From the NCBI GenBank assembly GCA_942492995.1, contig OW818653.1, positions 420,001 to 452,000 on the forward strand: 32,000 nt of DNA, written 5' to 3'. Source of the DNA: an uncultured Erysipelotrichaceae bacterium (lineage in GTDB: Bacteria > Bacillota_I > Bacilli_A > Erysipelotrichales > Erysipelotrichaceae). Position 1 is the stretch's first letter. Each line of letters starts with the position of its first letter. Below the pieces are notes generated by a model that saw nothing but the letters and a program-made list of their open reading frames with translations, was not told where the DNA came from and did no database searches. A program made the position numbers and the translations under genes. This document shows, one piece after another, positions 1,809-22,999 of the stretch.

Positions 1809-1819
1809 AGGGGGTTAAA

Positions 1820-4607: not shown

Positions 4608-4621
4608 TTGAAAGGGAAAAT

Positions 4622-5941: not shown

Positions 5942-5955
5942 AGGATAAATCAATT

Positions 5956-6741
5956 ATGAAAATAGAAGTTTTAGCTTCAGTAATGAATCAAACTGATTAT
6001 AGTATTGTAGAGAAAATGAATTTGAATACTAATGCTATTATTATTAATCAAAGTAATGATGTCAAATTCAATGAATTTTTCTATAAAAACAGTAAAATTC
6101 GATTTTTTACATTTAATGAAAGAGGAGTAGGTTTAAGTAGGAATAATGCGATATTGAGAGCGGAAGCTGACATTTTACTATTTGCAGATGAAGATATAGA
6201 GTATGTAAATAATTACGATCAAATTGTTATAAATGCATTTTTAGAAAATCCAGATGTTGACATGATTTTATTTAATGTTCCAAGCAAAAATATAAATAGA
6301 CCTACATATATTATTAATAAAAAAAGTAGAGTTCATTTCTATAATTGTTTAAGATATGGTGCAGTTAAAATAGCTATAAAACGAAAATCATTGGTAAAGA
6401 AAAATGTATATTTCTCTCCACTTTTTGGAGGGGGAGCGAAATATAGTGCAGGCGAAGATAGTCTATTTATTGCGGAATGTATAAAACATAAAATGAAAGT
6501 AATCACAAATCCTTCTATCATTGGATATGTTTCTCAAGAATCTTCTTCATGGTATCAAGGTTTTAACGATAAATATTTTATAGATAAAGGTGTATTCTTT
6601 TATTATTTAAATCATAAATTTTCGATTTTTTTTGGTATATATTATATTATTAAGCATATGAGTAAGTTTCAAGTTGACAAGGATTTATTTAGTGCATTTA
6701 AGTTAATTTTAAGAGGAATCAAAATTGCTAAAAAAGATTAA
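5956..6741 (+). CDS. GT-A fold glycosyltransferase (family 2-like)
   Basis: MKIEVLASVMNQ..., NERGVGLSRNNAILRAEADILLFADEDIEY (DXD-type DED). ATG at 5956 preceded by AAGGAT at 5941-5946. The longer ORF-track start at 5923 lies inside the upstream gene. Confidence 0.65.
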   Translation: MKIEVLASVMNQTDYSIVEKMNLNTNAIIINQSNDVKFNEFFYKNSKIRFFTFNERGVGLSRNNAILRAEADILLFADEDIEYVNNYDQIVINAFLENPDVDMILFNVPSKNINRPTYIINKKSRVHFYNCLRYGAVKIAIKRKSLVKKNVYFSPLFGGGAKYSAGEDSLFIAECIKHKMKVITNPSIIGYVSQESSSWYQGFNDKYFIDKGVFFYYLNHKFSIFFGIYYIIKHMSKFQVDKDLFSAFKLILRGIKIAKKD

Positions 6742-7012
6742 TTGTGATAAGAAAGTTTTCATGAAAATCAACAAGATTTATCAAATATTGAGATTTTAAA
6801 ATATTAAAATTCACGTAATGTAGAATTTGATTCCTGTTAAATTAATATAAATTTTGAGGTTTTTAAAAAAATATAATCAATTATATTAACTAAACCATTT
6901 TTTTATATATTATTAGTGACTTATTTGAATTTAATGAAAATTAAATCATCAATACTAATATTTTATTTTATAACTTGATTTTAATTATATTTTAATTTAA
7001 CAGAGGTGAAAT

Positions 7013-7957
7013 ATGTTATTTTCAATAATTGTCCCAGCTTTTAATGCGGAAAAATATATAAGTAGAAGTATTTTAAGTGTTTTAAATCAAACATTTACGG
7101 ACTTCGAGCTAATAGTTGTTAATGATGGCTCTAAAGATAACACTCTTAATTGCATAGAATTATTTAAAGATAATCGTCTAAAATTAATAAATCAAAGCAA
7201 TCATGGTGTTTCTAATGCAAGGAATACAGGAATTGTAAATTCATTAGGCGATTATATATGTTTTCTTGATGCTGATGATGAATATATGGTAAATCATTTA
7301 GAACATTTATCAAATCTTATTGCTATAAATTTAGATAAAGTTTTTTTTGCAACTAGGTTCTCACTATGCTTGCGAAATTCTAATAAAATAATAAGGCCAA
7401 ATACAACTGGAGCCATTGAATATATTGAAAATTTACTTGAAGTGAAACAAAAAAAATCTGAAGTTATTTGGACTGGATGTGTTTGTATTAAACGTGATAT
7501 GTTTGCAAAATATGGAATGTTTGAAGAGCGCTTGAGCTTAGGTGAAGATACTGATATGTGGAAACGAATTTATATACACTCAGGTGTTCTGTTAAGCGAC
7601 AATGTAACAGTCAAACGAAATAGAGACGGAAGTGAAGCAACAAAAATTTATACAAGAAATTTCGATGTAGATCCATTAAATCGTATGTCAATGTTTATGA
7701 ATGATTTAACAATAAAAGAAAGTGTAAAAAATAGTTTAGTAGTTGAGAATGAGTTAATTAAATTACAAGTGGTTAGATCATATATTTTTATTGGAAATAA
7801 TCAGACAGCAAAACAGAAAATGAAACTAATTAACATAAATATAATTCCAAAAAGTCGAGTACTAATTACTTATATTTGTTTTTATATTCCATCGTGCTTT
7901 ATTAGGAGTTACATGAAAATTAAAAATAGAGGAGTATATGATGGTGCATATAAATGA
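7013..7957 (+). CDS. Family 2 glycosyltransferase
   Basis: FSIIVPAFNAEKYISRSILSVLNQTFTDFELIVVNDGSKDNT, ARNTGI, FLDADDEY. SD AGAGGTG at 7002-7008. Confidence 0.85.
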   Translation: MLFSIIVPAFNAEKYISRSILSVLNQTFTDFELIVVNDGSKDNTLNCIELFKDNRLKLINQSNHGVSNARNTGIVNSLGDYICFLDADDEYMVNHLEHLSNLIAINLDKVFFATRFSLCLRNSNKIIRPNTTGAIEYIENLLEVKQKKSEVIWTGCVCIKRDMFAKYGMFEERLSLGEDTDMWKRIYIHSGVLLSDNVTVKRNRDGSEATKIYTRNFDVDPLNRMSMFMNDLTIKESVKNSLVVENELIKLQVVRSYIFIGNNQTAKQKMKLININIIPKSRVLITYICFYIPSCFIRSYMKIKNRGVYDGAYK

Positions 7958-8979
7958 CTGATTTAGTAAGTATAATAGTTCCTATTTATAATATGGAAAA
8001 ATCATTAATGTCATCAATAAGTTCATTACTTTTACAGGATTACTATAATATTGAAATAATACTTATTGATGATGGGTCAACAGATGCTAGTTTTGATATT
8101 TGTAAAACTTTAGCATCTAGAGATAATAGAGTAATTGTTCAACATACAGTAAATCAGGGCTCAGGTTCAGCTCGGAATTTTGGTATAAAACTAAGTAAAG
8201 GGAAATATTTATATTTCCCCGATGCAGATGATAAACTTGAATCCACAGCAATTTCTATATTAGTTTCATCAATGAATCATGGAGAAAATGATTTGGTTGT
8301 ATTTGGATATCAATGTAGAACACATAAAAATGAAATAATTTTCGAAAAAAAATATTTAAATTTCTCAAATACAGGTGACATTATAAGATATAATTATGAA
8401 GATTATTTTAATATGCAAAATTGTTTTAGCATTCAAGGTGCTCCATGGAACAAGTTTTTTGATGGAGATAAAATACGGGAAAATAATATACTTTTCCCTT
8501 TGTTAAAAAGACATCAAGATGAAGGTTTTATATCAAGGTATATGTGTTATTCAAAGAATGTAGTTTTTATACCTGAAGTACTCTATATATATTATCAAAA
8601 TACTATTCAACATGAATGGAGAAAATATCCGTTAGATTATGTCGAGTCAGTTATAGGACTTCACAAAATTTGGAATGAAACAATATGTTCGTGGAACAAA
8701 GATGATTTTAAGACACATTTATTAGTTAAAAAGGAAATTCTTTCTAAGTCAATTAAAGTATTAGAATTATCTTTTTCACCAAGAATGAAATTAAATTTCT
8801 TTACACGTAAATATTGGTTAAAAGAAATGTGTAGAAAACTTCATATTTCCAGATTTGGTTTATTTGAAGCTGATAGTTTATACCAAAAAAGTTTATTAGT
8901 ACTCTCAAAAATACATTCTTATTCTATTATGTCGTTTTTGTTAAAATTAAGTGTTATAAAAAGACAAATCAATCAATAA
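7954..8979 (+). CDS. Family 2 glycosyltransferase
   Basis: VSIIVPIYNMEKSL...LLLQDYYNIEIILIDDGSTDAS, SARNFGI, YFPDADD. ATGA overlap with the upstream gene. Confidence 0.85.
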   Translation: MTDLVSIIVPIYNMEKSLMSSISSLLLQDYYNIEIILIDDGSTDASFDICKTLASRDNRVIVQHTVNQGSGSARNFGIKLSKGKYLYFPDADDKLESTAISILVSSMNHGENDLVVFGYQCRTHKNEIIFEKKYLNFSNTGDIIRYNYEDYFNMQNCFSIQGAPWNKFFDGDKIRENNILFPLLKRHQDEGFISRYMCYSKNVVFIPEVLYIYYQNTIQHEWRKYPLDYVESVIGLHKIWNETICSWNKDDFKTHLLVKKEILSKSIKVLELSFSPRMKLNFFTRKYWLKEMCRKLHISRFGLFEADSLYQKSLLVLSKIHSYSIMSFLLKLSVIKRQINQ

Positions 8980-9010
8980 TAAATTAGTATTAATTTAAAA
9001 GGTGAAAATA

Positions 9011-10261
9011 ATGAATGATATAGTATTGAATTCTAAAAAAGGTTTTAAAATTAATCAAGATATGGTATTTTCAATACTAATTGCAGTGTTGTTTTGTCAT
9101 CAAACATTGTTTTCATATTTTGTATATGTAATTGATAGAATTCCTTTAATTTCATCATTTAAATATTTTTTCTTTCCAATTTTATATATAACACTTTTTA
9201 CTTTATCTTTTAATAAGAAACGCTTAAAATTCATCAAGATTTATGATTTATTATTAATACTTTTTTTTGTAATCTCAGTTTTTATTACAACAATTTTTTA
9301 CCCAAATAACTATCCCTATATTGCCTCTTCATTAACTTCTCAAATTTTGCCATGTGTTCCATTCTTTTTTATCGGTTTAAGTTTTTATGCTGAAGACCAA
9401 ACAATAAATACAGTATATTTATTTAGTTGCATTGCTATAATTATTAATATACTTTATGTTTTCTATTTCATTAGTTCTGGAAGAAATCTTGGTGGTGATA
9501 ATGTTGGATATAGTATGTATTGGTCCTATTTATTACTACCTAATATAATGATTGTAATAGAATATGCATTTAGGGAAAGGAAGTTATTTTCTATATTTTG
9601 TTCAATTTTAGGAATCATTTATACATTTGCTATGGGTACAAGAGGACCGATTGTAATTCTGTTTTTTTATATAGTTGTATCATTTTGGATCAGTTTAAAA
9701 ATTGATAAAATCAAAAAAATATTCTTATTTTTGATAGCAATAGGTTTTATTTTATTATTCTTTTATTCGCCCCTGTATTTGAATTTTTTATCTATTATCA
9801 GAGTTGGATTTATGAATAATGGTGTATCAACTCGAGTTATAGATTATCTGATTAATGGTGAAATAATTTCTTATACTTCAGGAAGATTAGATATTACTCA
9901 AAATCTATTAATTAAACTATGGGAACAACCAATTTTTGGTTATGGAGTTTATGGTGAATGGCCATTAGGTTATTATTCAGCACATAATATTTACCTAGAA
10001 ATAGTATTTCATTTTGGAATAATTTTGGGTTCAATTATGATAGTTGGATATATTGTGAAATATTTGAAAGCTTTATATGTTTCAAACAATGAATTAGCGA
10101 AAAGATGGTTAATTATGTTTGGATGTTTAGTGTTTGTAAAAGGCATCTTTGGTGGACGATACATGGAATATACGTTGTTTTTTCTTTTAGGTTTTAGTTT
10201 AAAAGAAATCAGAAATGCAAAAATTATTAAGAAACAACGTCGCATTATTGAGGTAAGTTAA
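9011..10261 (+). CDS. wzy: O-antigen/capsule repeat-unit polymerase (Wzy; O-antigen ligase-like family membrane protein)
   Basis: About 10 or more hydrophobic segments. FAMGTRGPIVILFFY motif typical of the Wzy_C/O-antigen ligase family. Large loop followed by YSAHNIYLEIVFHFG. ATG at 9011 has AAGGTG (8999-9004) 6 nt upstream. The ORF-track GTG at 9002 sits inside that SD. Confidence 0.7.
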   Translation: MNDIVLNSKKGFKINQDMVFSILIAVLFCHQTLFSYFVYVIDRIPLISSFKYFFFPILYITLFTLSFNKKRLKFIKIYDLLLILFFVISVFITTIFYPNNYPYIASSLTSQILPCVPFFFIGLSFYAEDQTINTVYLFSCIAIIINILYVFYFISSGRNLGGDNVGYSMYWSYLLLPNIMIVIEYAFRERKLFSIFCSILGIIYTFAMGTRGPIVILFFYIVVSFWISLKIDKIKKIFLFLIAIGFILLFFYSPLYLNFLSIIRVGFMNNGVSTRVIDYLINGEIISYTSGRLDITQNLLIKLWEQPIFGYGVYGEWPLGYYSAHNIYLEIVFHFGIILGSIMIVGYIVKYLKALYVSNNELAKRWLIMFGCLVFVKGIFGGRYMEYTLFFLLGFSLKEIRNAKIIKKQRRIIEVS

Positions 10262-10262
10262 A

Positions 10263-11396
10263 ATGAGTAATAATTTACATAGAGCATTTATTATATACGA
10301 AAGATATTATGATTTTGAATCAGATCATATTGTTTCAGGTGGAGTTCAAACATATATTTCAAATTTGATTCCAATTTTAATAGAGTCTGGATATAAATGT
10401 AATATATTTCAATATGGCGATAATAATTCAATGAATGAAAAAAGAATCCATAATTGCGATGTGATAAGTGTTCCAAATGCGAAAGTTAATGGAAGATACA
10501 AAACTAAAGTTGTTATTGATTATTTAAAAAGCGATTTTGACAGAATTAATGATCTATTAATTTTCGCTGATCATATATTAACTATTCGAAATAATGCATT
10601 AAACAGTATATCAATTCAACATGGAATTAATTGGGATATCCCTAAAGAAAAGAGTCGTAATAGTTTACATATGTTTTTGTCAAAAGCTCGATTTTCGTTT
10701 ATGGAGAATCAACGTTTAAAATATGTTACAAAAATAGTATGTGTGGACTATAATTTTCAAAACTGGTATAGAACACAGGTGGATATTCCTAATAATAATT
10801 TCATTATAATCCCGAATTTTACGAAGATAGCAAAAATATATGATAAAAATGATTCTCCTCTGAAAATCATTTTTGCAAGACGATTTGTAAAACATAGAGG
10901 AACAAGAATTTTTGCTGAAGTTATTAATCGACTTTTGCCAGAATTTGATAACATTGATATTACAATTGCTGGACGAGGAGAAGATGAAGAATTCCTACAT
11001 CAAAAGCTTGATAAATGGAAAGATCGAATTCATTTTACCCAGTATTTATCAGAGAAATCATTAGAAATTCATTCTGATAAACATATTGCTGTAGTTCCTA
11101 CTATTGGTTCGGAAGGTACGTCTTTATCTTTATTAGAAGCAATGTCAGCACAATGTGCAGTTATTTGTACTGATGTTGGCGGAATGACAAATGTAATTTT
11201 AGATAGATTTAATGGAAGAATAGTAAAAGCTGGTGATGTTGAACAATTGTACTTTGTATTGAAAGAAATTATAGAAAACCCATTTGAACGCAAAAGAATG
11301 GCTTTAGCTGGGTATGATTCTATAAAGTATTCATTTTCATTTGATCGTTGGGCTACGCAATGGCGAGCAATTTTTGATGATATAAAAAGAACATAG
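10263..11396 (+). CDS. GT4 (GT-B fold, group 1) glycosyltransferase
   Basis: C-terminal GT1/GT4 signature VVPTIGSEGTSLSLLEAMSAQCAVICTDVGGM...NGRIV (E-x7-E region). Confidence 0.8.
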   Translation: MSNNLHRAFIIYERYYDFESDHIVSGGVQTYISNLIPILIESGYKCNIFQYGDNNSMNEKRIHNCDVISVPNAKVNGRYKTKVVIDYLKSDFDRINDLLIFADHILTIRNNALNSISIQHGINWDIPKEKSRNSLHMFLSKARFSFMENQRLKYVTKIVCVDYNFQNWYRTQVDIPNNNFIIIPNFTKIAKIYDKNDSPLKIIFARRFVKHRGTRIFAEVINRLLPEFDNIDITIAGRGEDEEFLHQKLDKWKDRIHFTQYLSEKSLEIHSDKHIAVVPTIGSEGTSLSLLEAMSAQCAVICTDVGGMTNVILDRFNGRIVKAGDVEQLYFVLKEIIENPFERKRMALAGYDSIKYSFSFDRWATQWRAIFDDIKRT

Positions 11397-11418
11397 TATG
11401 CATTCATTGGGGGGTTAA

Positions 11419-12348
11419 ATGATTAATAAAGTAAAAAGGTTGTTTCCTTGGTTATATGATTATTATTGTCAATTATTACATTTAATAAAAATATTTAAAA
11501 TAAAAAGGTTAAAAAAGAAAAACACTAAGCAACGTCGTCAAATTATATCGAAAATGTATTTTGAGAGAATTGGGCATACAATAGACTGGGAAAAATTACA
11601 AACTTATACTGAAAAAATGCAGTGGGAGAAGTTGAACAATCTAAATCCATTAAAAACTACATTATCAGATAAATATCTTGTTAGGGAATGGGTAATTAAT
11701 AAAATAGGCTCAGAATACTTAATTCCACTATTAGGTGTATGGAATTCCTTTAATGAAATAAATTTTAATACATTACCAGATCAGTTTGTTCTAAAAACCA
11801 ATCATGGTTCAGGTACTAATTTAATCATTAAAAATAAAAATGAAATCAACTTGAAGAAATCAAAACAGATGTTTGATAATTGGATGGAAATTGATTTTGC
11901 TTATACAACTGGGTTTGAGTTACACTATTCAAATATAAAACGTAAGATTATTGCTGAGAAATACTTAGAAACAAATTTAGGTGAACTACAAGACTATAAA
12001 TTTATTTGTTTTGATAGTAAACCTTATTATTGTTGGGTGGATCTCGGTAGATTTGGGAAACATACACGAACAGTTTTTGATTTGAATTGGAATTTACAGC
12101 CTTGGACACAAGCATCATACGGAATTTATAAAAACAAAATTAATAAGCCGGAAAAATTCGATAAGATGATTGAATTAGTTACTATATTATGCCAAGGATT
12201 TTCCCAAGTTAGAGTTGATTTATATAATGTTGAAGGTAGAATTTATTTCGGTGAGATGACGTTTACTAATGGCAGTGGATTTGATCAAATAGTTCCAGAA
12301 GAGTATGACTTGATGTTAGGTAATCTTTGGAATATTGAATTGTTGTAA
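11419..12348 (+). CDS. ATP-grasp fold amidoligase family protein (TupA-like)
   Basis: SD GGGGGG at 11409-11414. The sequence runs colinear with the TupA-like ATP-grasp family as I remember it: YTEKMQWEKLNNLNPLKTTLSDKYLVREWV, IPLLGVWNSFNEINFNTLPDQFVLKTNHGSG, IIAEKYLE, LQDYKFICF, VRVDLYNVEGRIYFGEMTFTNGSGF. Confidence 0.75.
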   Translation: MINKVKRLFPWLYDYYCQLLHLIKIFKIKRLKKKNTKQRRQIISKMYFERIGHTIDWEKLQTYTEKMQWEKLNNLNPLKTTLSDKYLVREWVINKIGSEYLIPLLGVWNSFNEINFNTLPDQFVLKTNHGSGTNLIIKNKNEINLKKSKQMFDNWMEIDFAYTTGFELHYSNIKRKIIAEKYLETNLGELQDYKFICFDSKPYYCWVDLGRFGKHTRTVFDLNWNLQPWTQASYGIYKNKINKPEKFDKMIELVTILCQGFSQVRVDLYNVEGRIYFGEMTFTNGSGFDQIVPEEYDLMLGNLWNIELL

Positions 12349-12514
12349 CAAACTTAGTTATATTTAATAGTTATTTTAAAATATTGGAATTATAAGTTTA
12401 TTTTATTAGTAAAAGTTTCATTAACAATATAGAATAAAAAATTATTTAACTAATAATAATCGGAGTACAAATTTAAAAGGCTCTTTGAAATGATGTAAAG
12501 GTAATAAAAAGTAA

Positions 12515-13981
12515 ATGAATCGAGAAAAAATATTTTCATCACTTATATGGAAGCTTTTAGAGCGAGCTGGAATTCAAAGTGTAGGGTTTATTGTATCACT
12601 TATTTTAGCAAGGTTATTGTCTCCTAGTGATTATGGACTAATAACACTAATTATTGTTTTCATAAATTTAGCAAATGTTTTTATACAAGGTGGGTTCAAT
12701 ACTTCATTAATTCAAAAAAAAGATACTGATAACTTGGATTACTCAAGTGTTTTTATATTTAGCTTATTTACCTCATTCATTCTATACTTAGTACTGTTTT
12801 TCTCAGCACCATATATTGCTATTTTTTACAATGAATTAAAGCTAATAATGGTAATTAGAGTATTATCTTTAATACTTATTACAGGCGCAGTTAATTCTAT
12901 ACAAGTAGCATTTGTATCGCGAACTATGGAATTTAAAAAGCTATTTATGAGTAGTATTGGTTCAATTTTAATATCAGCAACAATAGGAATTGGAATGGCT
13001 TTAAATGGTTATGGAGTTTGGGCGCTTGTTTTTCAACAGATTTCAAATCAAATTTGTACTGTTATTATTATGTGGTTTACTATACCTTGGAGACCAAAAT
13101 TATTGTTTTCATTTAAAAGACTTAAAAATTTGCTTGGTTATGGTTGGAAGATACTATTAAGTAATTTAACAAATACGTTATTTTTAAATTTGAGAAGTCT
13201 GTTAATTGGGAAGATTTATACTCCTGAAATGTTAGGATATTTCAATAGAGGAAGACAATTTCCTGAAATTATTATGACTAATGTAAATGGTTCGATTCAA
13301 TCAGTAATGTTAGTTGCATATTCAAATGAGCAAGATAACACTTTAAAGATAAAATCGATGGTAAGAAGATCAATGACTGTTAGTTCATTCATTATATTTC
13401 CTATGATGTTTGGACTTGCAGTAGTTGCTGAACCTTTAGTAAGGCTACTTTTAACAGATAAATGGATATTAGCAATACCATATATTCAAATATGTGCTTT
13501 TACATATATGTTAATGCCAATCCATACAGCAAATTTACAAGCAATAAAAGCTATGGGTCATAGTGATATTATTTTGAAACTTGAAATAATAAGAAAAATA
13601 CTTGAGTTAAGCATTTTGGTTTTTAGTTTAAAATACGGTATCTTCGCAATTGCAATTGGTGAAGTTATAACTACTGTAATTTCTCTAGGAATTAATTTAT
13701 ATCCCAATAAACGTTTTATAAATTATGGAGTGCTTGAACAATTAAAAGATATTTTTCCTTCATTTATAAGTTCGTTAATTATGGCGGCAATAGTTCTAAG
13801 TATAAATTTTATTAGAATGAACTTACTTATTGGATTTTTAATTCAAATTATAGTAGGAGTAGTAATATATGTTCTCCTAGCATATTTATTTAATAGAGTT
13901 ACTGTTAATTATTTAAAAGATCTAATGCTTGGATATTTAAAAAGTTATAGAAGTAACAGAATAAAGGAATCTACAATATGA
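12515..13981 (+). CDS. wzx: Wzx-type polysaccharide repeat-unit flippase (MOP superfamily)
   Basis: 488 aa with about 12-14 hydrophobic segments. N-terminus LIWKLLERAGIQSVGFIVSLILARLLSPSDYGL is typical of the polysaccharide biosynthesis protein family. Confidence 0.8.
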   Translation: MNREKIFSSLIWKLLERAGIQSVGFIVSLILARLLSPSDYGLITLIIVFINLANVFIQGGFNTSLIQKKDTDNLDYSSVFIFSLFTSFILYLVLFFSAPYIAIFYNELKLIMVIRVLSLILITGAVNSIQVAFVSRTMEFKKLFMSSIGSILISATIGIGMALNGYGVWALVFQQISNQICTVIIMWFTIPWRPKLLFSFKRLKNLLGYGWKILLSNLTNTLFLNLRSLLIGKIYTPEMLGYFNRGRQFPEIIMTNVNGSIQSVMLVAYSNEQDNTLKIKSMVRRSMTVSSFIIFPMMFGLAVVAEPLVRLLLTDKWILAIPYIQICAFTYMLMPIHTANLQAIKAMGHSDIILKLEIIRKILELSILVFSLKYGIFAIAIGEVITTVISLGINLYPNKRFINYGVLEQLKDIFPSFISSLIMAAIVLSINFIRMNLLIGFLIQIIVGVVIYVLLAYLFNRVTVNYLKDLMLGYLKSYRSNRIKESTI

Positions 13982-15072
13982 AGAAAATAATGGTTGTTTT
14001 TGGAACAAGACCTGAAGCTATTAAAATGTGTCCGTTGGTTATTGAACTAAAAAATAGAGAAAATTTAAAAACAGTAGTTTGCGTAACTGGGCAACACAGA
14101 CAAATGCTTGATCAAGTTTTAGGTGCTTTCAATGTTGTACCGGAATATGATTTATCAATCATGAAGCAAAATCAAACTTTGTTTGATGTAACTTTAAATA
14201 TACTTGATAAAATGAGAATTATACTTAAAGAAGTAAATCCAGATGTTGTACTTGTTCACGGAGATACATCAACTACCTTTGTTACTTCATTAGCTTGCTT
14301 TTATATGCAGATTCCAGTTGGACATGTAGAGGCTGGATTAAGAACTTATGATATTTATTCTCCATATCCTGAAGAATTTAATCGTCAAGCAGTTGGAATT
14401 ATTGCAAAATACAATTTTGCTCCTACTAATATATCGAGAGAAAATTTATTAAGAGAAGGAAAGGATGAAGCGAGTATATTTGTAACTGGAAATACTGCAA
14501 TTGATGCATTAAAGACAACTGTTAGCTCCAAATATACACATTCTCAATTAGATTGGGCATCTGATAGTAAACTTATTATGATAACTGCTCACAGAAGAGA
14601 AAATATAGGCGAACCTATGAAACATATGTTTAGAGCTATTAAAAGAATAATTGATGAACACTCAGATATAAAAGCAATTTATCCAATACATATGAATCCA
14701 ATAGTAAGAGAGATTGCAAATGAAATTCTTGGAAATTGTGATCGAATTAGAATTATTGAGCCTCTAGAAGTCTTAGATTTTCATAATTTTTTATCAAAAT
14801 CTTACTTAATACTAACTGATAGTGGAGGCATTCAAGAAGAAGCTCCAAGTTTAGGAATACCAGTTTTAGTAATGAGAGATACAACTGAAAGACCTGAAGG
14901 GATAAAAGCTGGGACCTTAAAGCTTGTGGGTACAAATGAAGCTAATATTTATAATGCGTTTAAGTTACTTCTTGAGAACAAAAGTGAATACATCAAAATG
15001 AGTAAAGCAAGTAATCCATATGGAGATGGGTTTGCATGTAAAAGAATTGCAGATATTTTAGAAAGTGTTTAG
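13978..15072 (+). CDS. wecB: UDP-N-acetylglucosamine 2-epimerase (non-hydrolysing)
   Basis: VVFGTRPEAIKMCPL, VLVHGDTSTT, GHVEAGLRT, LTDSGGIQEEAPSLGIPVLVMRDTTERPEG. ATGA overlap with wzx. Confidence 0.92.
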   Translation: MKKIMVVFGTRPEAIKMCPLVIELKNRENLKTVVCVTGQHRQMLDQVLGAFNVVPEYDLSIMKQNQTLFDVTLNILDKMRIILKEVNPDVVLVHGDTSTTFVTSLACFYMQIPVGHVEAGLRTYDIYSPYPEEFNRQAVGIIAKYNFAPTNISRENLLREGKDEASIFVTGNTAIDALKTTVSSKYTHSQLDWASDSKLIMITAHRRENIGEPMKHMFRAIKRIIDEHSDIKAIYPIHMNPIVREIANEILGNCDRIRIIEPLEVLDFHNFLSKSYLILTDSGGIQEEAPSLGIPVLVMRDTTERPEGIKAGTLKLVGTNEANIYNAFKLLLENKSEYIKMSKASNPYGDGFACKRIADILESV

Positions 15073-15096
15073 TTACTCATTAGAAAGGGATAAAAT

Positions 15097-16263
15097 ATGA
15101 AAATTACTATAGCAGGTGCTGGTTACGTTGGATTATCCAACGCAATCCTTTTAGCGCAACATAATGAAGTTATTGCGTTAGATATTATTCAAGAAAAAGT
15201 TGATTTACTAAATAAGAGAAAATCACCAATTATTGATAAAGAAATAGAAGAGTATTTATCAACCAAGGAACTTAATCTTGTTGCGACTACGGATAACTAC
15301 ATAGCGTTTAAAGATGCTGAGTACGTTATTATTTCTACACCGACTAATTATGATGTAGATAAGAATTACTTCAATACACGTTCAGTTGAAGCTGTTATAG
15401 CGAATGTTTTATCTATTAATCCAAACGCAATAATGGTAGTTAAATCAACAGTACCTGTTGGATATACTGAAAAAGTTAGATTGATGTTTGATACAGATAA
15501 TATTATCTTTTCTCCAGAATTCTTAAGAGAAGGGAAAGCACTTTATGATAACTTATATCCTTCAAGGATTGTTGTAGGTGAGAAGTCTGAAAGAGCTAAA
15601 GTATTTGCGAATCTATTAAAACAAGGCGCAATCAAAGTAGACATTCCTTTATTATTTACAGGATCATCAGAAGCAGAAGCGATTAAACTATTTGCGAATA
15701 CGTATCTTGCTTTAAGAGTAGCTTATTTTAATGAACTTGATTCATATGCTGAAGTACGTGATTTAAATACAAAAGAAATAATAGATGGAGTTGGTTTAGA
15801 TCCTCGTATAGGAACACATTACAATAATCCATCTTTTGGATATGGTGGGTATTGTTTACCAAAAGATACGAAACAATTATTAGCTAATTATGCGGATGTA
15901 CCTCAAAGCATTATGTCTGCGATTGTAGATGCGAATCGTACACGTAAAGATCATGTGGCTGAAATGATTCTTAAACGTAATCCAAAGATTGTTGGAATAT
16001 ATCGATTAACAATGAAAATGGATTCTGATAATTTCAGACAATCTGCTATTCAAGGTGTAATGAAACGTATTAAAGCAAAAGGTATAGAAGTTGTACTATT
16101 TGAACCAGCTTTAGATCAACCAGAGTTCTTTAATTCAAGAGTTATAAATAATCTAGAGGAATTTAAGGCTATTTCGGATGTTGTGGTTGCGAATAGAATA
16201 ACAAATGATATTATTGATATTAGAGAAAAAATTTATACTAGAGATATATTTTGTAAAGATTAG
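15097..16263 (+). CDS. ugd: UDP-glucose 6-dehydrogenase
   Basis: [56 protein letters not shown] (catalytic Cys). SD AAAGGGA at 15084-15090. Confidence 0.9.
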
Positions 16264-16372
16264 ATTTTGTAATAATTTTAAAGGTTTAAATTATTTTTAG
16301 ATATAATAATTTCGGTAATTTTGATATGGTATTGGATGATTTAAATAAAGAATTAATTGCAAATGGAGACTT

Positions 16373-17164
16373 ATGAAATATCGAATCAATTTAAGAAAAA
16401 ATGCACAACATACACTTAAAGAATTAATCAAGAGTAATGGCAACCTACTAATAATTCATTATTCATGTGAAAGCTTTTATGATATTCCAAACGGAAGATC
16501 TCCAAGAATTACTTCAATAGCGATTAGATATTTCAAATCAGGACAAACAAAATCATTTTCAATCCATAAAATGGCTGAAATTAATAAAATTAAATTTGAG
16601 GATATTGAAGAGAATTATGATATTTTAGAGAAAAAAATGTTAGATGATTATTTCGAATTTATCAAAATTCATATTGAATATAATTGGGTTCATTGGAATA
16701 TGCGAGATTCAAATTATGGGTTTGAAGCAATTGAATATAGATACACAGTTTTAGGCGGATTTCCAGTTGTAATAAATAATAAAAATAAATTTGATTTAGC
16801 TAATATTTTAATAGATTTGTATGGACCAAAGTATATAAGTCATCCGAGATTAGAGAATTTGATAAAGCTGAATAAAATTTCAACACAGAACTTTTTAAGT
16901 GGTAAAGAAGAAGCTGAGTGTTTTACAAAAAAAGAATTTGTAAAACTTCATCAATCAACTTTGAGAAAAGTTGATATTTTTCAGACATTAATAGACAGAG
17001 AATTAAATAATGAATTAAGAAATTATTCAAAATTTATTGATATTTATGGATTGACTCCACAGAGTGTTTTTCTGTTCATACAAAGTAATTGGTTGGCTAA
17101 TTTGGTCTATTCTATAGTTTTGATTATTCTTGGTGCGTTTATCGGTCAAGCTATAGGATCATAA
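16373..17164 (+). CDS. Hypothetical protein with a single C-terminal transmembrane anchor (cassette gene A)
   Basis: SD GGAG at 16365-16368. 263 aa with no N-terminal signal sequence. The only strongly hydrophobic segment is the extreme C-terminus (LANLVYSIVLIILGAFIGQAIG, about aa 241-262). No family recognised. Confidence 0.6.
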   Translation: MKYRINLRKNAQHTLKELIKSNGNLLIIHYSCESFYDIPNGRSPRITSIAIRYFKSGQTKSFSIHKMAEINKIKFEDIEENYDILEKKMLDDYFEFIKIHIEYNWVHWNMRDSNYGFEAIEYRYTVLGGFPVVINNKNKFDLANILIDLYGPKYISHPRLENLIKLNKISTQNFLSGKEEAECFTKKEFVKLHQSTLRKVDIFQTLIDRELNNELRNYSKFIDIYGLTPQSVFLFIQSNWLANLVYSIVLIILGAFIGQAIGS

Positions 17165-17235
17165 ATATTATATTTACACTAAAATTGATTCTGATATTTG
17201 TATACTTTTAATTAATGAAAAAATGAGGTCATTAT

Positions 17236-19392
17236 ATGAAAATTGATTTACATTGTCATACCAAAAAAGTGAAGTCAGGCGATCCAATTACTAGAAATGT
17301 TAGCAAAGAAATATTTATAGATAAATTATCAGATTCATCTGTGTCTTTTGTAGCAATTACAAATCATAATCATTTCGATATAAGTCAGTATAATGATTTT
17401 TCTAATAATGATAAAGATATAATAATTTTTCCTGGAGTTGAGCTTGATATTGATGGCAAAGAAAGCTCTGGACATTGTTTGTTAATTACTTCTCCTAAAA
17501 ATGTTCATATTTTCAATGAAAACTTATATAGAAAAATAGGTAGTTTTCTACCAGATGATTTCAAAATGGATATTGATGATTTGTTGAATTTTGTTAAATC
17601 TGGTGAATATATAGTAGTGCCACATTATGGTTCAAAGTCACATTCTCTTTGTGAGAATGATATTGACTACATTATTAAGAATATTAGTAAAGTCCCGGTA
17701 TTGCTTGAACCTTCTAACTTAAGAAGTGCTGGAATTATGATTGCACATAATAAATCTACTATTATCGGATCTGATGTTAAAGATTGGACTAAATATAGCG
17801 AATCAAGATTACCTGAAATGAAAATTTTAATTAGTGGATTTGATCATTTATTGAAGCTTTTAAAAAAAGATATACCTACAATTGAAACATTTGTTAAAGG
17901 AAAATTTGCTGAAGAAGTTCATATAAACCCTGTGAAATATCCGGATTGTAATTTAAAGATAAATATCTATAATGACATAAACGTTATTTTTGGCGGTAAA
18001 GGTACAGGTAAGACTGAATTAATTCTAACTTGTATAAAAGACCATTTTGAGAGAAAGGGATATAATGATGTTTCAACATACTTTCCAAATGATAGTGATA
18101 AATTACAGGATTTTGACTCATTAAAAATAAATACACCTAAAGTAAATGATTTATCAAAATTAACAAACAATAATTTATCTAAAGAGTTTTCAATTGTCAA
18201 CGGTCATAAAACTGTTTCAATTACTTCAACATCAGAATATTATAAATGGTTGAATTCAGAAAAGCTCAAAGAAGTAAAATTTGGGTTTGCTAATGCTGTT
18301 TTTAATGTTGCATTAAAAGTATATGAAAAAGAGTATGTGGATGAAAAAGTTCATTACCAAAATACAATCGAAACGAAAAATAAAATGCTAACATTAGTAG
18401 GTGAAAAATATTTAACATCTACAGAAATTGACCAACTTAAATTATTATTAGAGAAAATAGTTAATAATTCTTGGTTAGAATTAGTTAAAGTTACAGCAGA
18501 TTATCATTCATTAATTTTAACAAAATGGAGTATTGAACTTTTTAAGAAGACTTATGTCAATAAAAAAGGAGTACATGTTAAACCTATACAAACTGGGTTT
18601 ATCTCTTTATTTGAAAATTCTTATATGCTTTATAATTCTGCATGCTCAATAAAACTGGCAATGGAAACAAAACCAATATTTGAGAAAACTGCTATAGGTA
18701 ACATAATAGGCAAAGGGGCAATTTATCGAGAAATCGAATATTCGATAAATCCTAGTTCTTATGTTCCTAAATCGACAAAACATATAAATCAGTCAATTAC
18801 TCATCAAGGAATTAAGTTATATTCTTCAAGTATTAATAAAATAGTTCAAAATACATTCTCGGATCTAGAACAAAGTACAATTAATGATTTTAAAACAAGC
18901 TTTAATCAATGGAATATAAACGACTTGTCAGATTTACTTCTCTGTAATACAAGAATTATTGATGAAAACAATATTATATACGATGCTTCTCCTGGTGAGA
19001 AAGCCATGTTGTTATTAAATTATAAATTAATGGATGATACAAAAAATGTTTATATACTTGATGAGCCTGAATCCAAAGTTGGACATAAATATATAAACGA
19101 TGTAATTATTCCACGTCTTTTAGAGTTATCTAGACAAGATAAGAAGATTATACTTACTACACATGATGCAAACATTGCTGTCCGAACACTTCCTCTCACT
19201 TCGATTTATCGTGAGCAATACAGGGTTAATTCAAAAGTTAATTATAGAACATACATTGGTAGTCCATTCCTAGACGAAATGAAATGCTATGAAGAAGATA
19301 TTGAACCTATAGATTGGGTTATAACAAGTATGGAATCTTTAGAAGGGGGAGAAAATGCATTTTTAGAAAGAGGAGAAAATTATGGAAAATAG
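17236..19392 (+). CDS. PHP-domain phosphoesterase fused to an ABC/SMC-like P-loop ATPase (cassette gene B)
   Basis: SD GAGG at 17225-17228. PHP ligand pattern: DLHCHT (H6, H8), AITNHNH (aa 40-46), GVELD (67-71), SGHCLL (78-83), VVPHYGSKSH (127-136), IIGSDVKD (176-183). Walker A GGKGTGKT (aa 253-260). About 325 aa later come the signature-like ASPGEKAML (584-592), Walker B VYILDEPE (605-612) and ILTTHD (H643). Confidence 0.8.
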   Translation: MKIDLHCHTKKVKSGDPITRNVSKEIFIDKLSDSSVSFVAITNHNHFDISQYNDFSNNDKDIIIFPGVELDIDGKESSGHCLLITSPKNVHIFNENLYRKIGSFLPDDFKMDIDDLLNFVKSGEYIVVPHYGSKSHSLCENDIDYIIKNISKVPVLLEPSNLRSAGIMIAHNKSTIIGSDVKDWTKYSESRLPEMKILISGFDHLLKLLKKDIPTIETFVKGKFAEEVHINPVKYPDCNLKINIYNDINVIFGGKGTGKTELILTCIKDHFERKGYNDVSTYFPNDSDKLQDFDSLKINTPKVNDLSKLTNNNLSKEFSIVNGHKTVSITSTSEYYKWLNSEKLKEVKFGFANAVFNVALKVYEKEYVDEKVHYQNTIETKNKMLTLVGEKYLTSTEIDQLKLLLEKIVNNSWLELVKVTADYHSLILTKWSIELFKKTYVNKKGVHVKPIQTGFISLFENSYMLYNSACSIKLAMETKPIFEKTAIGNIIGKGAIYREIEYSINPSSYVPKSTKHINQSITHQGIKLYSSSINKIVQNTFSDLEQSTINDFKTSFNQWNINDLSDLLLCNTRIIDENNIIYDASPGEKAMLLLNYKLMDDTKNVYILDEPESKVGHKYINDVIIPRLLELSRQDKKIILTTHDANIAVRTLPLTSIYREQYRVNSKVNYRTYIGSPFLDEMKCYEEDIEPIDWVITSMESLEGGENAFLERGENYGK

Positions 19393-19687
19393 AGAAATAA
19401 AAGTTTTACTTTGCAAGCAAGAGAATAAAGATTGTTTAATATTTAATATTACAGAAACTGAAAAAATATGTATAGATTTAAATTCTGATGACCAAGCAAA
19501 TCTCAAGAAATTATTTTATGATCTTATTAAAATAATGTTTGATACAAATATTATCTTAGAATTAGACTATGAAGAAGGTTATGATAAAAGTAATATTTTT
19601 GCCAATATAGCTGATGAATATATAAATGCTCTAAAAGCTGAACTTATAACTGTTAGAGGGATACTACCCAAAAAAATTATTGAATAA
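19382..19687 (+). CDS. Small acidic hypothetical protein (cassette gene C)
   Basis: SD AGGAG at 19371-19375, 6 nt before the ATG. Overlaps gene B by 11 nt. 101 aa with 20 D/E versus 13 K/R by my count. No family recognised. Confidence 0.55.
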   Translation: MENREIKVLLCKQENKDCLIFNITETEKICIDLNSDDQANLKKLFYDLIKIMFDTNIILELDYEEGYDKSNIFANIADEYINALKAELITVRGILPKKIIE

Positions 19688-19723
19688 AACAATAAAGTAA
19701 ACTAAGTTTTAAAATATTTAATT

Positions 19724-19914
19724 AATTCATTTCGGATGAGGAATGAACTCATGGATGAGGTTAAAACAAGTAGACAACAAGAAATGAAAGGGGGTATGAA
19801 TATTATGAGTAAAATAGTATTTGCATTGAAGTGTATTAAGTTTAGTGGGTTTAGCATAGGTGTTGCCCCGTTTGGAGTCAACTTTATTGTTGATTCCTCA
19901 TCCGAAGTGAATTA
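19724..19914. repeat. Long-range imperfect inverted repeat (21 nt arms, 149-nt spacer)
   Basis: Left arm AATTCATTTCGGATGAGGAAT (19724-19744). Right arm ATTCCTCATCCGAAGTGAATT (19894-19914). 20 of 21 positions are complementary, and the single mismatch would be a G-U pair in RNA. A second GGATGAGG copy lies at 19754-19761. Confidence 0.85.
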
Positions 19915-19916
19915 GT
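19806..19916 (+). CDS. Unannotated small ORF, 36-aa hydrophobic peptide (MSKIVFALKCIKFSGFSIGVAPFGVNFIVDSSSEVN)
   Basis: Hand-translated; too short for the ORF track. G-rich SD AAAGGGGG at 19788-19795, 10 nt before the ATG at 19806. In-frame upstream ATGs at 19785 and 19797 are also possible starts. Hydrophobic core with a polar/acidic tail. Stop TAG at 19914-19916 lies in the right arm of the inverted repeat. Confidence 0.3.
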
Positions 19917-20004
19917 AATATTGCAATTTTAATTAACTTATTTTATTATATCGAAGGGATTAGATTAACTCCAACAATCATCAAGAAGAATTATGGCAAG
20001 TAAG

Positions 20005-20035
20005 AACTCGTATTATATACGAGTTTTTATTTTAT
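20005..20035 (+). terminator. Rho-independent terminator
   Basis: AACTCGTAT (20005-20013), loop TAT, ATACGAGTT (20017-20025): a perfect 9-bp stem followed by TTTATTTTAT. First convincing terminator downstream of the cassette and small ORF. Confidence 0.65.
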
Positions 20036-20049
20036 CTAGATAACATTCC

Positions 20050-20078
20050 TTCGTTTTTATCATTGGTTTCGTTATAAT
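20050..20078 (+). promoter_or_regulatory. Putative sigma-A promoter for the mrp/apbC gene
   Basis: Perfect -10 TATAAT at 20073-20078. Weak -35 TTCGTT at 20050-20055 with a 17-nt spacer. SD GGAG at 20088-20091. Confidence 0.4.
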
Positions 20079-20099
20079 AGAAACGCTAGGAGATTTAGT

Positions 20100-20891
20100 A
20101 TGACAAATCAAAAGTTAGACCCAAAGTTTAATCCATTTAAACCAAGAGCTAAAAAAGAAACAAAGATAAAGAAGATGGTAGCGGTAGTGAGTGGTAAAGG
20201 TGGTGTTGGTAAATCAACGGTTTCAGCACTTTTGGCAACACATGCGCAAAGAGCAGGGTATCAAACAGGTGTAATTGATGGAGATATTATTGGTCCATCA
20301 ATGGGACATCTATTCAATATACATCAGCCATTATTTGGGGATGAAAGTGGTATAGAACCAGCTGTGACAGAAACAGGTATTAAACTTGTGACTTCGAATA
20401 TGTTGGTCAAAGATGAAAATACACCAATCTTATGGAGAGGTGCATTAATTACTAAAGCAGTTACTGATTTCTGGACTGAAGTAAATTGGGAAGAGTTGGA
20501 TCTAATGGTTCTGGATATGCCTCCAGGAACAGGGGATATCGCGATGACTGTATTCCAGAGTTTACCTATAACTGGAATTGTGATTGTGACGAGTCCTCAA
20601 GACTTAGTAAGTATGATTGTGTCAAAGGCAGTAGAAATGGCGCATAAGATGAATGTTCCAATTATTGGGATTATCGAAAACTTTAGTTATTTCGTATGTG
20701 ATGAATGTGATAAAGTTCATTATCCATTTGGGACGAGTAAAGGTAAATCCATTGCGGATAAGTATAATATTCCATTATTAGGTCAATTACCGATTAATCC
20801 ATTGATCAATGAATTAGCGGATCAAGGAAGAATTGAAGAGATTGAAAGTGAAGATTTTACATGGTTAGTCGAAACGATTATGGAAGCATAA
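20100..20891 (+). CDS. Mrp/NBP35 (ApbC) family Fe-S cluster carrier ATPase
   Basis: Deviant Walker A VVSGKGGVGKST, LVLDMPPGTGD, and FVCDECDKVHYPFG (CxxC cluster-ligand motif). Confidence 0.88.
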   Translation: MTNQKLDPKFNPFKPRAKKETKIKKMVAVVSGKGGVGKSTVSALLATHAQRAGYQTGVIDGDIIGPSMGHLFNIHQPLFGDESGIEPAVTETGIKLVTSNMLVKDENTPILWRGALITKAVTDFWTEVNWEELDLMVLDMPPGTGDIAMTVFQSLPITGIVIVTSPQDLVSMIVSKAVEMAHKMNVPIIGIIENFSYFVCDECDKVHYPFGTSKGKSIADKYNIPLLGQLPINPLINELADQGRIEEIESEDFTWLVETIMEA

Positions 20892-22336: not shown

Positions 22337-22346
22337 AGTTAACATT

Positions 22347-22376
22347 AACCGATAGAAATATCGGTTTTTGTTTATT
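22347..22376 (+). terminator. Rho-independent terminator
   Basis: AACCGATA (22347-22354), loop GAAA, TATCGGTT (22359-22366), then TTTGTTTATTT. Confidence 0.7.
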
Positions 22377-22525
22377 TATAATACATATCATGTATGTGAC
22401 TAAACCTATAATATGCATTATAAAAATAGTTTTCATTATCGTTAGAAATCGATTGTTTATACGAAAAATGTATGATAACTTATAAACATTATATATGTAC
22501 TAAATATTACCGGGGGGTAAAAAAT

Positions 22526-22975
22526 ATGAGTCAACGTGAATCGTATAATGATCACATTAATGGAATACATGAATCATTGGAATTAGGTAAAGAATATGAG
22601 ATGTTAGTAACTAATTCGAGCATGACTCCATTGTTTAATCCATATGATACAAAGATTCGTATAAGTGCTATAAACGCGAAATATAAGTTAAATTATGGGG
22701 CTATTGTATTATACTCTCGTGTCTCACAAAGTGTTTCTATTCGTCGTATTGTACGCGTAGGAAACCACACGATCGATGTAAGAGGTATCTTACAAAGACA
22801 TGTGGAATCGAAGTTACCTAAGAGTGGTGTTATTGGAGTTGTAAGTGCATATACAGTAAACGGGCATTGGGTTAAAACGAATTCAATTGTACATATCGTA
22901 CTTTGTAGTACACTTGTCTTCTATTCTTTCTTCTATCGAATCTATCGAAATTTACTAAAACAAATACAGTATTAA
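22526..22975 (+). CDS. Hypothetical protein, possible S24/S26 (LexA/signal-peptidase-like) fold with a C-terminal TM helix
   Basis: SD GGGGGG at 22512-22517 favours the ATG at 22526 over the ORF-track start at 22472. NSSMTPLF resembles the (G/S)xSMxP nucleophile motif, and GAIVLYSR...SIRRIVRV resembles the GDIIvf...HRIv strand pair. C-terminal helix IVHIVLCSTLVFYSFFY. Confidence 0.35.
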   Translation: MSQRESYNDHINGIHESLELGKEYEMLVTNSSMTPLFNPYDTKIRISAINAKYKLNYGAIVLYSRVSQSVSIRRIVRVGNHTIDVRGILQRHVESKLPKSGVIGVVSAYTVNGHWVKTNSIVHIVLCSTLVFYSFFYRIYRNLLKQIQY

Positions 22976-22999
22976 AAAAAGACAGATTTCTGTCTTTTT
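22974..22999. terminator. Bidirectional rho-independent terminator between convergent genes
   Basis: AAAAAGACAG (22976-22985), loop ATTT, CTGTCTTTTT (22990-22999). A-run on the left and T-run on the right serve both strands. Overlaps the stop codons of both convergent CDSs. Confidence 0.7.

Follow-up and report, generated by a model that had tools for sequence, protein, structure and literature searches.

The 32,000-nucleotide (nt) stretch analysed here, referred to as the window (contig OW818653.1 of assembly GCA_942492995.1, positions 420,001 to 452,000, from an uncultured Erysipelotrichaceae bacterium), carries at 16264-20035 a block of three genes, called A, B and C below, which lies between a polysaccharide locus and conserved core genes. 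A preliminary description of the sequence had taken the three to be components of a single candidate defence system, with A as the membrane-anchored partner of a nuclease-ATPase fusion, B. That boundary was drawn too wide. B and C are an obligate two-gene unit; A travels separately, as a single gene carried by prophage lysogeny modules and by plasmids, and is not a component of B-C. The reading that we favour, and consider reasonably probable, is that the block holds two independent, horizontally mobile conflict modules, brought together by chance where a hypervariable polysaccharide locus ends.

The pairing of B with C and the separateness of A are demonstrated by comparison of loci. B-like genes were sought by a scan with one genome per GTDB species, which gave 80 loci in about 15 phyla, and metagenome and plasmid loci were added; hidden Markov models (HMMs) of two small-protein families were then applied to the loci with a full-length B-like gene. 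A small open reading frame (ORF) follows the B-like gene directly in all 74 of these: in 64 it belongs to the family of C and in 10 it is of the PDC-M49B type, which is taken up below. It starts 8-29 nt before the stop codon of B or at most 1 nt after it, the overlap being mostly 14 or 11 nt. (In the window the overlap is 11 nt, 19382-19392, with the TAG stop of B at 19390-19392, as the preliminary description had read it; its view of C as the coupled partner of B is borne out by the full set of 74 loci.) All-against-all clustering of about 1030 neighbouring ORFs found this small ORF to be the sole recurrent neighbour, every other one being confined to at most 5 loci. A is absent from each of the 74 loci by neighbour clustering and by tblastn of A itself. 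In the other direction, 61 loci of A were clustered (57 of them IMG/VR viral contigs; the family was noted at L088, L089 and L100-L156), and over the 513 kb that they comprise neither B nor C occurs in any. What lies upstream of the closest relatives of B (56-63% identity) varies: a Pycsar-like cyclase with PycTM, a type I restriction-modification (RM) operon with a 238-amino-acid (aa) protein that has no transmembrane (TM) segment, an APH gene, or T5orf172/ResIII.

The site at which the two modules meet is itself variable. Eight contigs (L090-L097) that encode an identical Mrp protein align with the window only from 20037 on; upstream of that point they have TM2, Wzy_C or glycosyltransferase/ABC/DUF6077 genes in place of the window's DNA. 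The DNA upstream of 20037 being wholly different in strains with identical Mrp, the A-B-C block is strain-specific cargo, and the three other, alternative gene sets mark the site as a hypervariable surface-polysaccharide/defence hotspot. Polysaccharide locus and A-B-C together are strain-specific DNA at a hypervariable site: window 1-20036, which is made up of the polysaccharide operon (111-16263) and A-B-C, has no DNA counterpart in the eight contigs. The exact sequences of A, B and C are singletons in a collection of 15 billion proteins; a named member of the cluster to which the Mrp protein belongs agrees with an Erysipelotrichaceae host. The strain specificity of the block is in line with the defence-type reading of the preliminary description, whose GC counts of single 60-nt lines in the block, in ugd and in purA are reproduced on recounting (25.0%, 31.7% and 48.3%). 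Its statement that the block is compositionally unlike the core flank stands (26.5% GC against 34-38%), with the nuance that the block is indistinguishable from the polysaccharide locus (26.8% at 2501-13977).

Table 1. Features of the A-B-C block; positions are those of the window
Feature	Position	Strand	Basis and remarks
Gene A	16373..17164	+	ORF, 263 aa; stand-alone module, family phrog_8766
Gene B	17236..19392	+	ORF, 718 aa; PHP phosphoesterase plus SMC/Rad50-like ABC ATPase; predicted enzymatic core of the B-C module
Gene C	19382..19687	+	ORF, 101 aa; acidic partner of B
Shine-Dalgarno sequence of A, GGAG	16365..16368	+	Read from sequence
Shine-Dalgarno sequence of B, GAGG	17225..17228	+	Read from sequence
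Shine-Dalgarno sequence of C, AGGAG	19371..19375	+	Read from sequence
DnaQ/RNase-H-like fold of A, residues ~22-212	16436..17008	+	AlphaFold2 model, Foldseek
C-terminal TM helix of A, residues 244-262	17102..17158	+	Hydrophobicity, AlphaFold2 model
PHP domain of B, residues 1-222	17236..17901	+	Invariant residues, structure matches, PF02811 on homologues
Walker A of B, G253-T260, K259 invariant	17992..18015	+	33-homologue alignment
Long helical, coiled-coil-like insertion of B, residues 360-476	18313..18663	+	AlphaFold2 secondary structure; head matches
ABC signature S585-P-G-E588 through Walker B VYILDEPE (D609/E610) of B	18988..19071	+	Invariant
H-loop of B, H643	19162..19164	+	Invariant in 33 homologues
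Structured element between C and terminator	19716..19921	.	Bounded by 33-nt inverted repeat
Intrinsic terminator, closing the block	20005..20035	+	Hairpin and T-run; conserved core flank from 20037

A matches phrog_8766 at 4.9e-80 over nearly its whole length (residues 4-261 against 3-257 of the 262 positions of the profile), a PHROG family that carries the label 'unknown function'. Its homologues make up more than 3500 clusters at 50-76% identity, in Bacillota, Bacteroidota and Nitrospirota, and identity is 50-60% between distant phyla, a degree of conservation that is unusual in cargo genes without an assigned function. A matches none of the families of Pfam, NCBIfam and PADLOC, nor is there homology to the known superinfection-exclusion (Sie) and abortive-infection (Abi) proteins in PADLOC. 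The AlphaFold2 (AF2) model, at a pLDDT of 90, has an RNase-H-like core, and Foldseek searches of PDB and BFVD give consistent but weak matches (E 5e-5 to 1e-1, TM-score 0.4-0.5) to DEDD/DnaQ-type exonuclease folds, including the exonuclease domains of PolB and T7 polymerase, ERI2, 3'hExo, Cap18, YprB-like proteins and Maelstrom. The invariant motifs are HYSCE (29-33), HWNMRD (107-112), H157 and H193-x5-K199, with D201 nearly invariant. Like the DEDD exonucleases, A keeps an ExoII-like motif, HWNMRD, and an ExoIII-like one, H193...D201; the putative catalytic set, mapped by motif order and secondary structure only, would comprise E33, D112 and H193, all invariant, and D201, with S31 at the position of the first aspartate. 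Unlike them it has a C-terminal tail anchor, which is unusual for the fold: the Kyte-Doolittle maximum for a 19-residue segment, 2.2, falls at residues 244-262, and residues 240-262 are helical in the AF2 model, in keeping with the original proposal that A is tail-anchored. The invariant histidines and cysteine of A (H29, C32, H65, H107, H157 and H193) could be the ligands of a metal.

In Streptococcus Javan prophages, A is found between cro/xis and a cI-like repressor gene, in the same direction as repressor and integrase. Among the 61 clustered loci the genes downstream, mostly on the strand of A, include cI-like repressors in 28 (at 0.4-1.3 kb), integrases in 22 and ImmA-like proteins in 12; A is typically the first gene of a prophage lysogeny operon that reads A, cI-like, ImmA-like, integrase. 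Lysogeny modules are the classical place for prophage cargo that serves defence or superinfection exclusion. Sie-type membrane proteins of prophages include lactococcal Sie2009 and Ltp of TP-J34; A is like these Sie-type genes in its place in the lysogeny module and in its membrane attachment. The family is not limited to prophages. Matches of A by tblastn also lie on cyanobacterial, Legionella and Agrobacterium plasmids; A occurs on conjugative Bacillus plasmids, for example pAW63, and in integrase/Mrr and AbiH/nSTAND islands.

The same placement can be read in another way, namely that A works for the prophage or plasmid that carries it, perhaps as a membrane-tethered protein, regulatory or active in nucleic-acid processing, on which lysogeny maintenance or induction depends, and is present in the window as the remnant of a degraded element. 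Membership of an operon with repressor, ImmA-like protein and integrase is what such a function would lead one to expect, A has no PADLOC match, and an identity of 50-60% across phyla is less usual for a fast-evolving immunity gene than for a protein whose molecular partner is fixed. Against this, A is also found where there is no prophage: on the plasmids and in the islands just named, and alone in the window. The occurrence of A outside prophages fits a self-sufficient cargo gene, and we regard a function for the element itself as possible but, on balance, doubtful.

Full-length homologues of B, of about 710 aa, number more than 1000. Their distribution is sporadic: an exhaustive search of 1.84 billion representatives yielded 167 clusters (at 50% identity) with E<=1e-30, and the best 150 matches of that search are all of at most 746 aa. 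The statements on invariance made here refer to an alignment of 33 homologues (alignment A1). In the PHP half the ligand set H6, H8, H44, E69, D71, H80, H130 and D180 is invariant, and position 16 is occupied by D or E; in the ATPase half the Walker A lysine, signature residues S585, G587 and E588, the Walker B pair and the H-loop histidine are likewise invariant, as is a C-terminal tail, W...LEGG..AF..R...Y. The AF2 model (pLDDT 87.9) is composed of a PHP barrel (1-222), an ABC (ATP-binding cassette) head, a helical arm (360-476) and, following the arm, a beta-hairpin unit (481-503). With the PHP half, Foldseek finds, at a probability of 1.00, the PHP phosphoesterase 3o0f, RNase AM (7ug9/9etk; RNase AM/TrpH-type) and the PHP domain of Pol III alpha (4gx9/2hnh); with the ATPase half it finds the heads of JetC, RecN, Rad50, Smc and a retron-IA ATPase. 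The assignment of the PHP domain rests on homologues, invariant residues and predicted structure taken together. A profile search of PDB sequences with B puts AriA at the top (2.6e-9), followed by PtuA. Among PADLOC models B matches PDC-M49A (4.2e-13, residues 2-285), HEC-02A and AriA, and its clade gives matches to AriA, PtuA and GajA.

Much of what the preliminary description had said of B survives this analysis. It is a PHP-ABC ATPase fusion, and the residues that had been singled out for mutation (H6, H8, K259, D609 and E610) are all invariant; the long insertion between the ABC motifs is the helical arm of the model; the ATPase is indeed like those of defence systems, its nearest counterparts being AriA, PtuA and retron-associated ATPases; and PHP does stand in the place of TOPRIM or HNH, the PHP fold having been found and Pfam, PADLOC and NCBIfam scans of A, B and C having found no TOPRIM or HNH domain.

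How does B-C relate to systems already catalogued? Across the families scored, B stays below the cutoff of every curated model except that of the Pfam domain AAA_21, and C matches none. The AAA_21 match, the sole Pfam match of B, is to the C-terminal ATPase half (1.6e-6, above cutoff). The closest approach is to PDC-M49. The PDC systems are 145 PADLOC phage defence candidates reached by guilt-by-embedding, nominated for their embedding in BREX, DISARM or type I RM loci (Payne et al., 10.1101/2024.01.29.577857), and PDC-M49 was built from two cassettes that share a common large protein and have different families of small protein (10.1101/2024.01.29.577857). B-C has the same two-gene plan, a PHP-ABC ATPase of about 670-720 aa followed by an overlapping gene for a protein of about 100 aa, and the PDC-M49A HMMs match 29 of the 33 aligned members of the B family, some of them over the full length (L099 at 1.8e-36). 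The 10 divergent loci already referred to, in which a B-like protein of about 675 aa is paired with a partner of about 100 aa, are bona fide PDC-M49A/PDC-M49B, at about 1e-290 and about 1e-35. The difference is one of degree for B, which in the window scores 4.2e-13 over residues 2-285 only, against 1e-290 to 1e-298 at full length for bona fide PDC-M49A, and one of kind for its partner: PDC-M49B matches none of 63 C-family members, nor the C of the window. Homology of C to PDC-M49B was considered and is rejected at the level of sequence (hhalign probability 0.6%). The weak or partial PDC-M49A scores, with a C that PDC-M49B does not match, place B-C of the window in a sister clade of PDC-M49, with C, as judged from its sequence, a third partner family that is unrelated to the small proteins of PDC-M49 or has diverged from them beyond recognition. 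The preliminary description had held that a match of the full A-B-C block to a named system would refute its proposal. In part such a match exists: the architecture of B plus small protein is catalogued, as the PDC-M49 candidate, but the HMMs of that candidate capture B-C of the window poorly.

The other catalogued relatives are more distant or differently built. Ppl (PplA; Gao et al. 2020), which the preliminary description had mentioned as a possible relative, also combines PHP and ATPase in one polypeptide; it is described as a single gene that confers protection from T7 and Bas63, the latter of which counters it with gp130 (PMC11482910), a description that sets apart B, which is paired in 74 of 74 loci. 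No Ppl-named PADLOC model is matched by B at E<=1 or by its relatives at 1e-3, in a library not confirmed to include a Ppl model. With no Ppl-named match, and with Ppl a single gene, membership of B in Ppl is not established; what remains of the suggested link is the shared architecture. The best NCBIfam match is NF045780, 'TrlF family AAA-like ATPase', which also has an N-terminal PHP region and ATPase motifs. It is a model of 944 positions, more than 200 longer than B, and its cutoff of 350 is far from reached (B 7.8e-23, 81 bits; relatives 1e-12 to 1e-27, 45-95 bits). Two PDC-M49A-type proteins, from L086 and L078, weakly match a second NCBIfam model, NF045781, 'Spaf_1101 family AAA-like ATPase', which suggests a larger, poorly charted PHP/AAA-like ATPase superfamily. 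With PARIS, Septu, Gabija, OLD and retron-associated SMC-like ATPases, B shares a defence-clade ABC ATPase (AAA_15/AAA_21) with intact motifs, coupled to a nuclease; unlike PARIS, Septu, Gabija and OLD it has an N-terminal PHP domain, not TOPRIM or HNH, and a partner of about 100 aa that is acidic and has no nuclease motif. With Mre11-Rad50/SbcCD and the SMC-kleisin systems (JetC of Wadjet, Lamassu) it has in common an ATPase built of head and helical arm and the coupling to a metal phosphoesterase, C being reminiscent of kleisin or LmuC as a small accessory subunit. The arm of B is short (about 115 residues), however, and its phosphoesterase is of PHP type, not calcineurin-like as in Mre11-Rad50/SbcCD; as for Lamassu, LmuB is not in the top 25 PADLOC families of the B clade. 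A literature search under the names TrlF, PDC-M49 and phrog_8766 returned nothing usable.

C of the window has an isoelectric point (pI) of 4.61 and a net charge of -7, which agrees with its first characterization as small and acidic; its family is uniformly acidic, with a median pI of 4.5. No Pfam, NCBIfam or PADLOC family matches C of the window. A link to LmuC of Lamassu is a weak possibility: the matches among C homologues are few and weak, the same number of homologues match an REase_II model, C of the window has no LmuC match, and a PDB profile search with C brought up no LmuC.

Homologues of B-C typically sit among RM, Wadjet, DISARM-like, Pycsar, Abi and TIR genes, or on plasmids; near neighbours across the loci include integrases, ResIII, DNA methylases, GmrSD, RloB, TIR, BrxL and PycTM. 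Individual loci give the flavour. B-C is flanked in L169 by a PLD-SNF2 and MmeI/Eco57I-type methylase pair and by Wadjet JetABCD; it lies directly behind hsdMSR in L170, ahead of an AlwI RM system in L171, close to a Cap4 nuclease and insertion sequence (IS) elements in L166, close to Abi_2 in L002, and next to a type II RM system on a Photobacterium plasmid in L099. The preliminary description had proposed tabulating whether homologues lie in variable loci or defence islands; the loci compared here lie in defence islands, on plasmids and in variable loci. On the Staphylococcus aureus plasmid pCOL52-A5 (L098, 3501-5907) the pair adjoins IS257 and an Fst toxin gene, and both of its genes are annotated 'hypothetical protein'; RefSeq labels of B-type genes in general are only 'hypothetical protein', 'AAA family ATPase' or 'histidinol phosphatase'. 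B-like matches by tblastn also lie on Enterococcus and Listeria plasmids. Some plasmid copies of B-C are apparently truncated or split; one such copy, on an Enterococcus faecalis plasmid (L157), is a 558-aa 'histidinol-phosphatase'. Viral contigs contribute little: a scan of them with B alone found none, and with the B alignment only 8 IMG/VR contigs carrying the B-C pair. In the closest relative on a long contig (L001, 5440-7898) a Pycsar-like pair lies ahead of B-C, with a 240-aa cyclase-like protein and, two genes further downstream, PycTM; further upstream are a UvrD/DEAD helicase and an AAA_13 ATPase, making a compact defence island. PycTM, or another membrane protein, was considered as a recurrent upstream partner of B and rejected, PycTM of L001 belonging to the Pycsar-like pair and the other close relatives having unrelated, non-TM proteins at that place.

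Some of these contexts would also suit a toxin-antitoxin (TA) or addiction module, with B as a toxic nuclease, C as its labile antitoxin and no dedicated antiviral role. The overlapping, translationally coupled genes and the small, acidic C are of that style; B-C-type genes reside on S. aureus, Enterococcus and Listeria plasmids, with IS257 and the Fst toxin gene at hand in one case; Pfam describes AAA_21 as 'putative AbiEii toxin, Type IV TA system'; and one locus (L168) is near HipBA. Most B-C loci, however, are chromosomal defence islands and not plasmids, and a TA-like design is compatible with abortive infection (AriA of PARIS is deposited in PDB as 'antitoxin'). A purely addictive function is, in our judgement, unlikely.

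The arrangement of the three genes in the window is the natural argument for keeping them together. The preliminary description had given three co-directional ORFs on the + strand, each with its own Shine-Dalgarno sequence, and a first terminator behind C, and all of these, coordinates included, are upheld. The terminator hairpin (20005-20025) has a 9-bp stem and a 3-nt loop with a T-run behind it, and the fold of 19995-20040 comes to -15.8 kcal/mol (z = -5.8); a simple terminator-consensus scan did not list this hairpin. The same kind of scan found no match on the + strand of the 71-nt gap between A and B, and the genes being co-directional, A, B and C are probably co-transcribed here. One could therefore see in A-B-C a single defence system, with membrane-anchored A as effector, sensor or anchor of B-C: the genes are tightly spaced and lie in one strain-specific AT-rich block. 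Elsewhere this arrangement dissolves. A is found in none of the 74 loci of B, and B and C in none of the 61 loci of A; the genes upstream of the closest B relatives are unrelated to it; and in prophage lysogeny modules, as on plasmids, A occurs by itself. We consider a single three-gene system very improbable. Least credible is that B-C is a housekeeping nuclease of DNA repair, a single-chain analogue of SbcCD/Mre11-Rad50 with no part in conflict: the ATPase half is like Rad50, RecN and SMC heads, with a phosphoesterase fused to it, and mutS adjoins one locus (L168), but the family is sporadic in its spread, absent from sister strains with identical flanks and present on plasmids and occasionally on viral contigs, and its neighbours are mainly defence and mobile genes.

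Two further elements of the interval and its flank deserve mention. Between C and the terminator, within 19688-20036, lies an element of about 210 nt whose inverted-repeat arms (19716-19748 and 19889-19921, 33 nt) are 85% complementary; the RNA fold of 19685-19925 amounts to -68.3 kcal/mol (z = -6.4), and a 59-aa ORF without Pfam match (19736-19915) is contained in it. Rfam gives no significant match anywhere in 15900-20300, no counterpart of the element exists among 172 other loci, and in metagenome scans a gapped pattern had 0 matches and an 18-mer 17 scattered single matches, taken as chance. It may be MITE-like (a miniature inverted-repeat transposable element) or a non-coding RNA. In the core flank, a second strain-specific insertion, 22338-22995, is apparent from comparison with L090, L091 and L095, three sister contigs that match the window up to 22337 and again from 22996; it carries an ORF of 167 aa (22472-22975) without a Pfam family.

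Several observations weigh against reading B-C and A as two separate conflict modules, and they are best taken together. In A the first aspartate of the DEDD set is replaced (S31-C32-E33). The first residue of the DxE motif being apparently serine, canonical exonuclease chemistry is uncertain, and A may not be a conventional exonuclease. In B the usual last histidine ligand of PHP domains (DxH) is not kept, position 182 being Q, K, R or H, and B of the window has no direct match to Pfam PHP, PF02811 matching only on homologues (precomputed). The sole family hint for C, matches of 7 of 63 homologues to PADLOC LmuC, is weak (best 1.6e-5), and any role given to C is pure inference. At least one B-C locus (L168) lies among housekeeping genes, with mutS adjacent and HipBA and SoFic nearby. 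A defence role for the B-C clade, for PDC-M49 and for the A family is in each case argued from context and architecture. Finally, given likely co-transcription, a local functional interaction of A with B-C is possible.

What B-C does, to what target and with what phenotype, we infer from its architecture and its neighbours. B would dimerise through ABC heads that sandwich ATP, and its helical arm and beta-hairpin insertion would sense or clamp a cue, either nucleic acid or a phage protein. Binding or hydrolysis of ATP might then license the N-terminal PHP domain, as a metal-dependent phosphoesterase, to cut nucleic acid. By analogy, such a design would make B a single-chain counterpart of Mre11-Rad50/SbcCD and of OLD, Gabija, PARIS and Septu. 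Translational coupling would provide C in fixed stoichiometry with B, most likely as a bound regulatory subunit, either an inhibitor or antitoxin-like lid or the receptor of the trigger, that keeps the nuclease off until infection. The predicted outcome would be restriction of invading DNA or abortive infection. A would be active on the inner side of the membrane, its most plausible task being superinfection exclusion or defence against incoming nucleic acid. The combined proposal, that B-C represents a phylum-spanning defence family of PHP/SMC-like ATPases gated by C and that A represents a new class of tail-anchored, DnaQ-fold exclusion or defence proteins of lysogeny operons, is offered as a tentative one, which we would not yet expect to hold in all its parts.

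Redrawing the boundary from three genes to two matters in practice, for cloning and for the rules of defence-finding programs. If B-C is active, it would add a PHP-based branch to the class of immune systems that combine an ABC ATPase with a nuclease, and would provide a tractable model, of two genes and 2.5 kb, for the gating of such enzymes by a small obligate partner. The pair is present, unannotated, on S. aureus plasmids, and B-like matches extend to those of Enterococcus and Listeria. The A family is the least understood element of the interval: extremely conserved and widely transferred, and combining a nuclease-like fold with a membrane anchor, it is a good candidate for a new mechanism of exclusion.

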